DNA of 64,000 nucleotides, from NCBI RefSeq assembly GCF_045037415.1, contig NZ_CP173440.1. One strand, given 5' to 3'. How positions within the stretch are numbered: the first letter of the stretch is position 1; each line of letters opens with the position of its first letter. The translations under genes and the position numbers were made by a program. The notes below the pieces were generated by a model. It ran no database searches. It was not told the origin of the DNA and saw nothing but the letters and a program-made list of their open reading frames with translations. This stretch comes from Escherichia coli. Lineage in GTDB: Bacteria; Pseudomonadota; Gammaproteobacteria; Enterobacterales; Enterobacteriaceae. Shown here in pieces: positions 51,329-51,922 of this stretch.

Positions 51329-51559
51329 ATCAACTCCTCCAGCAACACAGACTACAGGAATCCAAACAGATTTTTCTGAACTAACAAGGGCGTTTGCATT
51401 TTTTTTTAAAATTTTTTGTGCTCATGCCGTCGGCTAAAAAAAGTAACTTTTTTGTGAGCACGTCCAACAACCTCTGCCTGTGGCCCGCACGGTGTGCGAT
51501 CCATCCCCGGAAAACCACTTCACGCAAACTTGGAGATGGAAAAAGTAACTTTTTTGCGA

Positions 51560-51830
51560 ACCAGTAATAGGTACCCTTATACATAAGTAACTATTTGCAA
51601 AAAAAGTACTAATGAAAGTGTAGGATTCCAGTCCTGCCATTAGTACCTTTCACAGGAAAAAGTACTAATGAAAATCTATCCTCATTAGTACTTTTTTGAT
51701 TAAAAGGTACTAATGAAACCGAGCGGAACTGTGCAGTTTCTATAAAAAGTGCCTAATGTTATAAGTACCAGTACAAGGTAAAAGGACAGTGATTTTTTAT
51801 AATTTAGTATCTAATAATATTAGTACTTGT
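51560..51830. promoter_or_regulatory. candidate oriT / divergent control region with direct and inverted repeats
   Basis: Three direct copies of AAAAAGTACTAATGAAA (~51601, 51657, 51703), each paired with an inverted CATTAGTAC (~51638, 51683), plus further TAGTAC variants. Lies between the divergent relaxase and Trh operons. Confidence 0.4.
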
Positions 51831-51922
51831 TTTTTTGGGTAGTATCTCTAAGATGGCTTTGATATAATAACAGCCCTTAAGTAACCGTATGTAGCGCGAT
51901 TTAAAAGTACTCTGGAGAGCGT

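Follow-up and report, generated by a model that had tools for sequence, protein, structure and literature searches.

Does the spacer that separates the relaxase operon from the Trh operon in an IncHI-type plasmid backbone act as an origin of transfer (oriT), and if so, which of its sequences and which protein would give it that role? We addressed this question for a stretch of 64,000 nt from Escherichia coli (contig NZ_CP173440.1, assembly GCF_045037415.1; hereafter the window), in which an earlier note, made from the sequence alone, had placed a candidate oriT at positions 51329–51922. The coordinates proved exact: they cover the entire 594-bp spacer from the start codon of mobI (51328, − strand) to the ATG of a 251-aa open reading frame (51923, + strand). 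The genes for MobI, a relaxase and the coupling protein TraD flank it on the left and homologues of trhR and trhY on the right. It is likely, judging from the comparisons below, that this spacer contains a functional oriT, the counterpart of that of R27, and we hold with equal confidence that it is also the divergent control region of a Tra1-like transfer module.

The gene order traD, mobH, hypothetical gene, mobI (traH), spacer, trhR, trhY, trhF, trhH and trhG is common to the window and R27 and is also kept in one R27-like IncHI1 and one IncHI2 plasmid; synteny and protein homology thus identify the spacer as the positional orthologue of the R27 traH–trhR spacer. Lawley et al. (2002, J Bacteriol 184:2173) reportedly cloned that R27 spacer and found it to be mobilized by R27; oriT function is said to have been demonstrated for the R27 spacer only, and for that of the window it is argued by comparison. 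The general proposal of a candidate oriT with accessory-protein repeats is supported by the Pfam MobI neighbour, the R27 anatomy and the listing of this sequence type as oriT-E21, while the details concerning the AAAGTAACTTT sites, the inverted partners of the repeats and their phasing have to be revised.

Palindromic units in the spacer

The spacer is AT-rich (27–34% G+C, against ~45% in the flanks) and has many repeats in inverted as well as direct orientation; a repeat scan returned seven families of direct repeats along with 22 inverted pairs. The direct repeat AAAAAGTACTAATGAAA occurs exactly at 51601–51617 and 51657–51673, and a third copy at 51702–51718, AAAAGGTACTAATGAAA, has one mismatch. 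With spacings of 56 and 45 bp, these are the three direct repeats about 50 bp apart that had been described. The inverted partner reported after each of them exists for the first two copies, which are adjoined by CATTAGTAC at 51638 and 51683, but not for the third, after which the next ATTAGTAC is 100 bp off, at 51819. Likewise, the phasing at five helical turns is approximate and not regular (5.3 and 4.3 turns), the conserved feature being a set of indel-free palindromic units. The repeats themselves are real and far beyond chance: in the whole 64 kb, the 9-mer GTACTAATG and its complement are confined to a stretch of 110 bp, in which they number five, and allowing up to three mismatches gives 11 matches, of which five cluster in the spacer, against 2.5 expected (0 of 100 shuffles reached 11).

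The copies make up three palindromic units of ~33 nt in tandem, with the pattern CAT(T/A)AGTA(C/A)C-N14-GTACTAATG, an arrangement that, together with a 78-bp palindrome, had escaped the earlier note. Unit 0 (51582–51614; CATAAGTAAC-N14-GTACTAATG; copy 1 of repeat family D1) is degenerate and overlaps the core box described below. Unit 1 (51638–51670; CATTAGTACC-N14-GTACTAATG; D1 copy 2 and inverted repeat I11) has conserved arms and linkers that are not conserved, and unit 2 (51683–51715, or 51682–51716 as inverted repeat I7) reads TCATTAGTACTTTTT-tgatt-AAAAGGTACTAATGA, with 15-nt arms that are 93% complementary across a 5-nt gap. Units 1 and 2 together make up the 78-bp composite palindrome (51638–51715; I1; 34-nt arms, 85% complementary, 10-nt centre), a potential hairpin or cruciform that is recovered by self-BLAST of the region (E = 3.5e-14). 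This nested palindrome dominates the predicted DNA folds of 51560–51730, which have z values of −6.6 for the + strand and −5.5 for the − strand relative to shuffled sequences. Further right, a degenerate direct-type copy, AAAAAGTGCCTAATGTTA (51744–51761, + strand; inverted repeat I8), is conserved in all Klebsiella-clade lineages. Scanning with Rfam assigned no RNA family, and the microRNA-precursor (hairpin) models that matched the palindrome were all below threshold.

Tandem repeats, conserved spacing and AT-richness are also typical of replication iterons and of parS/parC-type sites, but it is very improbable that the array consists of iterons or of centromere-like partition sites. No rep or par gene adjoins it; mobI and trhR flank it in all relatives, R27 and IncHI5-like plasmids included. 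The units are palindromic, unlike directly repeated iterons, and an isolated relic of mobI and the spacer persists between insertion sequence (IS) copies on plasmids with other replication systems.

Conservation and covariation in Klebsiella relatives

Footprints were drawn from five Klebsiella-clade lineages, whose whole spacers are ~69–83% identical to that of the window. Mean pairwise identity is 91% in a 29-bp core box, ATAGGTACCCTTATACATAAGTAACTATT (51568–51596), 80% in the arms of the units and ~40% in the linkers and unit centres. Twenty-three of the 29 core-box columns are invariant, and the 8-mer TTATACAT within it recurs at the corresponding place in IncHI1, R27 and IncHI2. From the core box through unit 2, 174 nt align with zero indels.

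The arms come in distinct types: GTACTAATG in the window and lineages L003 and L006, TACAAATG/TACCAATG with CATTGGTAC in p44-1, pKleb8A7 and Pluralibacter, and TTCACAAATG with CATTGGTGAA in lineage L012. Of the cells in the arm pairs, 87% are standard-paired, compared with 33–56% when the partners are slid, and in unit 2 an A-T pair has become G-C through changes on both arms in four of eight sequences. A scan of species-representative genomes with the MobI alignment returned four loci only and no further arm type.

Which protein may read the arms

A comparison of the window with p44-1 gives identities of 100% for TrhY, 98.8% for TrhR, 98.1% for the 262-aa protein whose gene separates mobI from the relaxase gene and 94.2% for MobI, yet the arms differ. 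The sole column that separates the arm groups in conserved, gap-free sequence is residue 66 of MobI, which is R in company with GTACTAATG and K or Q otherwise. It belongs to a variable patch (64–67) of an otherwise conserved motif, and this patch is KVEL, KLEL or KIEL in IncHI1-, IncHI2- and R27-related proteins. In the AlphaFold model of MobI (predicted local distance difference test score, pLDDT, 87.7), residue 66 lies in the first strand of a β-hairpin linking two long helices. The predicted fold as a whole consists of two long antiparallel helices with the β-hairpin as their joint, and it matched no known DNA-binding fold; searching the PDB with the model gave no significant match, the best being prefoldin-like and V-ATPase/coiled-coil stalk proteins with E > 0.01.

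Since the arms change together with this β-hairpin residue, MobI dimers appear to be the likeliest binders of the units, recruiting the relaxase in turn, and we favour, with slightly better than even confidence, the view that MobI binds the palindromic arms. As best candidate binder it is consistent with what has been published for IncC, where MobI self-associates and recruits TraI, and where MobI and the cognate TraI domain determine oriT selectivity; TraH of R27 is described as a MobI-like factor in the same work (bioRxiv 10.1101/2025.04.21.649884). The site and the protein may also have moved together. The flanks of the window and p44-1 are 95–100% identical, whereas identity is 49–71% from ~51630 to the trhR ATG and is also lowered over MobI codons ~34–66. 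Because this island of divergence (~51130–51922) spans the 5′ part of mobI and runs to the trhR ATG, MobI and its site look like one cassette of MobI–oriT specificity that has been exchanged.

A functional oriT whose units are read by the 262-aa protein or by the relaxase itself, with MobI acting only as a protein adaptor, seems unlikely. The gene for the 262-aa protein does occupy a conserved position in all IncHI types and is functionally uncharacterized, and a MOBH2 relaxase, the gonococcal TraI, recognizes an inverted-repeat hairpin unaided (PMC6736028). However, the columns of the 262-aa protein that discriminate the arm groups are found only in its gappy C-terminal tail rich in alanine, proline and serine, the window and p44-1 versions of the protein share 98% identity despite the difference in arms, and oriT selectivity in IncC is set by MobI and the cognate TraI domain.

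Earlier predictions and the published mobilization test

The spacer had been predicted as an oriT before. In Ares-Arroyo et al. (bioRxiv 10.1101/2024.01.30.577996), each relaxase contributed the first large spacer found upstream of it, and these spacers were then clustered. A 19-mer specific to the window occurs in three entries of their File S1, and the oriT-E21 entries (e.g. NZ_CP092401.1 and NZ_CP055107.1) contain the repeat array of the window, which places it in the E21 cluster; the p44-1-type allele is listed as oriT-HI1B. Given this listing of the sequence type as oriT-E21, the candidate is real but not new. The same locus is concerned, but the main-text and supplementary passages considered here contain no dissection of the repeats, no link to R27 and no mention of the dispersed palindrome (A-box) discussed below. 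A further oriT, that of pLVPK-like plasmids reported by Xu et al. in 2021, was considered as the same locus and rejected, as none of the six oriT_76 primers is found in the 64-kb window; it is an F-type oriT mobilized by the F-derived pOX38 (PMC8299605).

Several points weigh against a transfer origin read by MobI. First, in the only reported test, made with the sister allele, pCOLADuet::mobI-hypothetical-MOBH::oriT-HI1B gave zero transconjugants with chromosomal RP4, a failure that the authors blame on the foreign mating system (bioRxiv 10.1101/2024.01.30.577996). We also regard this test as weak, because both the type IV secretion system and the coupling protein were foreign. Secondly, the array is 250–390 bp from mobI and nearer to trhR, whereas the core of the IncA/C oriT abuts mobI. 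Thirdly, the compensatory changes in the arms, which represent about two evolutionary events, would fit hairpin formation and symmetric protein recognition alike, and the correlation between MobI and the arms covers only four arm types and would also arise from linkage within one recombined segment. Direct DNA binding, moreover, has been demonstrated for no MobI protein (bioRxiv 10.1101/2025.04.21.649884), which equally favours a reader other than MobI.

A dispersed palindrome and the control of the flanking operons

Two exact AAAGTAACTTT sites are present where they had been described, at 51440–51450 (A-box 1, 117 nt upstream of the mobI start) and 51542–51552 (A-box 2, immediately left of the core box and matched in position by an A-box in R27, IncHI1 and IncHI2). 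Their interpretation as binding sites for relaxosome accessory proteins does not hold, since they are two of the 30 members of a family, AAAGTNACTTT, that is spread through the window and equally enriched in R27, and they are therefore not specific to the oriT. The motif is an 11-bp palindrome (5+1+5) whose 30 occurrences compare with ~1.6 or fewer expected. Twenty-two of the 30 are intergenic, in a window that is 74% coding, and five lie 107–117 nt upstream of start codons, namely that of mobI (117 nt) and four others (107–115 nt). R27 has 13 in 45 kb against 0.03 expected, and the R27-like IncHI1 plasmid 16 in 50 kb against 0.10 expected, some of the copies being at equivalent positions. Examples in the window are found at 5265, 6666, 11469, 13234, 38429, 51440, 51542, 52786, 55365/55382, 61227 and 63647. 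A duplicated context, ...GTCGTTGTTTATG.GCTGCACAGG.CCGGAAAGTTACTTT, surrounds the A-box at 61190–61260 and 63610–63680. Inspection by eye revealed no convincing fixed promoter geometry downstream of the A-boxes, and a full-text literature search for the motif strings gave nothing relevant, AAAGTNACTTT being undescribed there in such a context.

Taken together, AAAGTNACTTT looks like a plasmid-wide operator that forms a layer separate from the oriT, and the A-boxes probably set the transcription of mobI and trhR. In R27, TrhR and TrhY serve as activators of four operons (F, H, AC and Z), and HtdA opposes them; the study reporting this names no DNA target for the circuit (PMC7366339). The palindrome may be the operator of the corresponding TrhR/TrhY–HtdA circuit.

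On the trhR side, conservation alone identified an extended −10 element, TGATATAAT (51860–51868, + strand), which is invariant in five diverged relatives and has the equivalent TGATAAAAT in IncHI1 and IncHI2. It is probably the promoter element of trhR, serving trhR–trhY. Scanning the spacer for σ70 and terminator consensus sequences gave no matches, the promoter scan being empty because a −35 element is absent. Thirty-three base pairs upstream of the −10 element lies a distal palindrome, AGTATCTAATA/ATATTAGTACT (51806–51827; repeats I22 and D4), consisting of two more arm-like copies, and its right half tracks the arm type of the lineage (TATTAGTACT in the window, TATTTGTGAT in p44-1 and TATTTGTGAA in L012). 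As this palindrome follows the arm type and lies upstream of the −10 element, the protein that binds the arms may also regulate trhR.

These features raise the question of whether the array is anything other than a set of transcriptional operators for two divergent operons, that of mobI (H-operon) and that of trhR (R-operon), bound by MobI as an autorepressor or by TrhR/TrhY, with the nick elsewhere. The array does lie between the two operons, the arm-like palindrome upstream of the invariant extended −10 element varies with the arm type, the mobilization test of the HI1B allele cited above was negative and the IncA/C oriT overlaps the mobI promoters, so that regulatory and transfer roles coincide there (PMC5587640). 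We nonetheless consider a purely regulatory array quite improbable. TrhY is identical and TrhR nearly so across lineages with differing arms, and regulation is compatible with an oriT, many relaxosome accessory proteins being autoregulated. In addition, the oriT adjoins mobI in each MobI-type element studied, and the orthologous R27 spacer is said to confer mobilization, for which there is secondary support in PMC10838148.

Possible position of the nick and proposed mechanism

The observed starting point is the 29-bp core box followed by three tandem ~33-bp palindromic units, fixed in position and separated by variable linkers. MobI dimers or multimers would occupy the palindromic arms, reading them through the β-hairpin near residue 66, and by analogy with MobI and TraI of IncC, the bound MobI would recruit the MobH relaxase. 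The relaxase would then nick one strand in or next to the core box, the palindromes possibly being extruded as hairpins that would function, as they do in other oriTs, in recognition and termination. TraD would finally pass the relaxase–DNA complex to the F-type mating apparatus.

Judged by its conservation, the core box is the best candidate for nic and for relaxase recognition. That the nick falls in or beside 51568–51596 is nevertheless a tentative placement, which we would put somewhat below an even chance. On the − strand the core box is situated 3′ of the hairpins, an arrangement in which the relaxase operon would be transferred first. As a usual rule, relaxase genes are transferred last, which would instead place nic to the right of unit 2 on the + strand. 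No nic-site mapping for R27 was found in the literature, in a search that did not include Lawley et al. (2002).

Genetic context of the spacer

Many Klebsiella pneumoniae plasmids typed as IncHI1B/IncFIB, MOBH and MPF_F (e.g. NZ_CP072809.1) share 100% identity with the window, and on this sequence evidence the window is the backbone of an IncHI1B/IncFIB (pNDM-MAR-type) Klebsiella plasmid. Immediately left of the spacer, on the − strand, mobI (50864–51328) encodes the proposed binder of the palindromic units, a 154-aa homologue of R27 TraH that matches Pfam MobI (PF19456, E = 3e-21), is labelled MobI(A/C) by the Prokaryotic Genome Annotation Pipeline and is 34–38% identical to the MobI proteins of IncHI1 and IncHI2 (34% for R27). 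The gene for the uncharacterized 262-aa protein (50076–50864, − strand), which in all IncHI types separates mobI from the relaxase gene, has a product without a match in Pfam or NCBIfam and 22–24% identical to its counterparts in IncHI1 and IncHI2. A MobH-family relaxase of 977 aa (47129–50062, − strand; NF041494 MobH, 209 bits with a cut-off of 200), 39–40% identical to the IncHI1 and IncHI2 relaxases (R27 40%), and the TraD type IV coupling protein (45013–47139, − strand; TIGR03743, 477 bits) complete the operon, so that a cognate MOBH relaxase and coupling protein are present on the same element.

To the right, the TrhR homologue of 251 aa (51923–52678, + strand) has no Pfam match and is 28–31% identical to the proteins at the trhR position of IncHI1 and IncHI2 (R27 31%); its counterpart is annotated as trhR in a Pantoea record. 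The TrhY homologue of 174 aa (52871–53395, + strand) is 35% identical to the counterparts in IncHI1 and IncHI2 and in R27, and beyond it follow TraF-, TraH- and TraG-like mating-pair genes.

Elsewhere in the window, the segments 1–15683, 17820–19155 and 21297–28796 were compared with NZ_CP072809.1: the first 15.7 kb are inverted, and ISL3-type and IS110-type elements are placed differently, which indicates IS-mediated rearrangement of the backbone relative to that plasmid. A plasmid CRISPR-Cas module (22947–28397 and 28646–28796) includes a Cas6-like protein, a DinG-type helicase and their partners, and a short array with a 61-bp period and 2.5 copies; it fits the type IV-A system reported for IncHI1B/IncFIB plasmids. 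Two paralogous backbone segments, 40726–41252 and 61361–61888, share ~93% identity along 530 bp. On the mobI side of the spacer, past the relaxase operon and another ~10 kb, lie a group II intron reverse transcriptase, umuDC, a RES-Xre toxin–antitoxin pair and a hok-type toxin gene (30101–31588, 31674–33367, 33468–34378 and 35470–35628). Genes for hok and toxin–antitoxin systems are of kinds frequent in plasmid leading regions.

Relic copies and plasmid transmissibility

Plasmids with this backbone carry NDM and other carbapenemases and give rise to hybrids with hypervirulence plasmids. The spacer is contained in more than 1,000 Klebsiella plasmid records (~1,100 PLSDB records), and ~480 records typed as non-mobilizable retain it. 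Two such modules were inspected. NZ_CP054781.1 (5369–9014; L020) has mobI, all or part of the 262-aa gene and a spacer 99% identical to that of the window, with truncated trhR and trhY remaining and the module bracketed by IS5 copies. The plasmid pKleb8A7 (L004), typed as non-mobilizable, likewise has mobI together with all or part of the 262-aa gene, and its spacer is 76% identical to that of the window. In the stretches inspected on these two plasmids, no full-length relaxase gene is annotated beside the module.

Probably, many of the ~480 plasmids typed as non-mobilizable are without a relaxase but keep mobI and the spacer. If the spacer functions in the way proposed, plasmids bearing the relic could be mobilized in trans when a resident plasmid supplies a matching MobI and relaxase, and the scoring of their transmissibility would change. 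Current tools do not recognize the spacer as an oriT; one paper explained a non-conjugative IncHI5-like plasmid by an 'absent oriT', oriTfinder having found none.

A broader proposal is possible but doubtful. Backbones that are nearly identical bear differing MobI–arm alleles; the 5′ part of mobI and the array would form a swappable cassette deciding which partner a given helper plasmid could mobilize (the partners including the ~480 plasmids typed as non-mobilizable by MOB-suite), and AAAGTNACTTT would be the DNA target of the IncHI TrhR/TrhY–HtdA circuit, uniting in a single regulon the oriT, the tra operons and numerous genes of the backbone. The anatomy described here, with a core box, units fixed in position, a MobI residue that tracks the arms and a separate plasmid-wide operator, makes the oriT question directly testable.

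Comparison with R27 and other transfer origins

Location directly upstream of mobI is what would be expected of a MobI-dependent MOBH1 oriT, and mobI directly adjoins the oriT in SXT, R27 and Rts1 (PMC10838148). The IncA/C oriT is likewise immediately upstream of mobI, is AT-rich with inverted and direct repeats and overlaps the mobI promoters, its nic being unmapped (PMC5587640). The window thus resembles the IncA/C (Hegyi et al. 2017) and SXT/R391 (Ceccarelli et al. 2008) origins in its position upstream of mobI, AT-richness, repeats, promoter overlap and the pairing of MobI with a MOBH1 relaxase. The sequences, in contrast, are not related. The region upstream of mobI in the IncA plasmid pRA1 contains no TTATACAT box, no A-box and no repeat in common with the window, and the spacer does not belong to the A/C-type oriT family with its 14-bp direct repeats and IR2–IR5. 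Since pRA1 shares none of these sequences, the kinship of the spacer is with the IncHI (MOBH11) oriT and not with that of A/C (MOBH12). The A/C oriT core also lies within ~150 bp of mobI, and mobI is ~50 kb from the relaxase gene there, whereas in the window it heads the relaxase operon; the relaxases fall into different subclades, MOBH12 for A/C and SXT and MOBH11 for IncHI (bioRxiv 10.1101/2025.04.21.649884).

In the gonococcal genetic island, the oriT is similarly built around a long inverted repeat and served by a MOBH-family relaxase, the MOBH2 TraI, which recognizes the inverted-repeat hairpin alone, with nic 3′ of the hairpin (PMC6736028). It differs in that there is just one inverted repeat, of 32 nt, and a MobI-like factor is not required, while the window has an array of palindromes and mobI.

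The closest architecture is that of R27, with which the window shares the TTATACAT box, tandem palindromic units and A-boxes, although the arm sequences differ. The R27 spacer contains the TTATACAT box and four tandem CATAGGGTCAC-N13-GTGACCCTATG units at 42–44 bp, and its fold has a z value of −8.4. In both spacers an A-box and the TTATACAT box are followed by palindromic units of ~33 nt whose centres are A/T-rich, in an AT-rich setting with strong hairpin potential. The arms are GTACTAATG in the window and GTGACCCTATG in R27, and the window has three units (one of them degenerate) at 56/45 bp, compared with four at 42–44 bp. The spacer is 594 bp long in the window and 757 bp in R27, and both A-boxes of the window lie on the mobI side of the array, whereas R27 has one AAAGTNACTTT box on each side.

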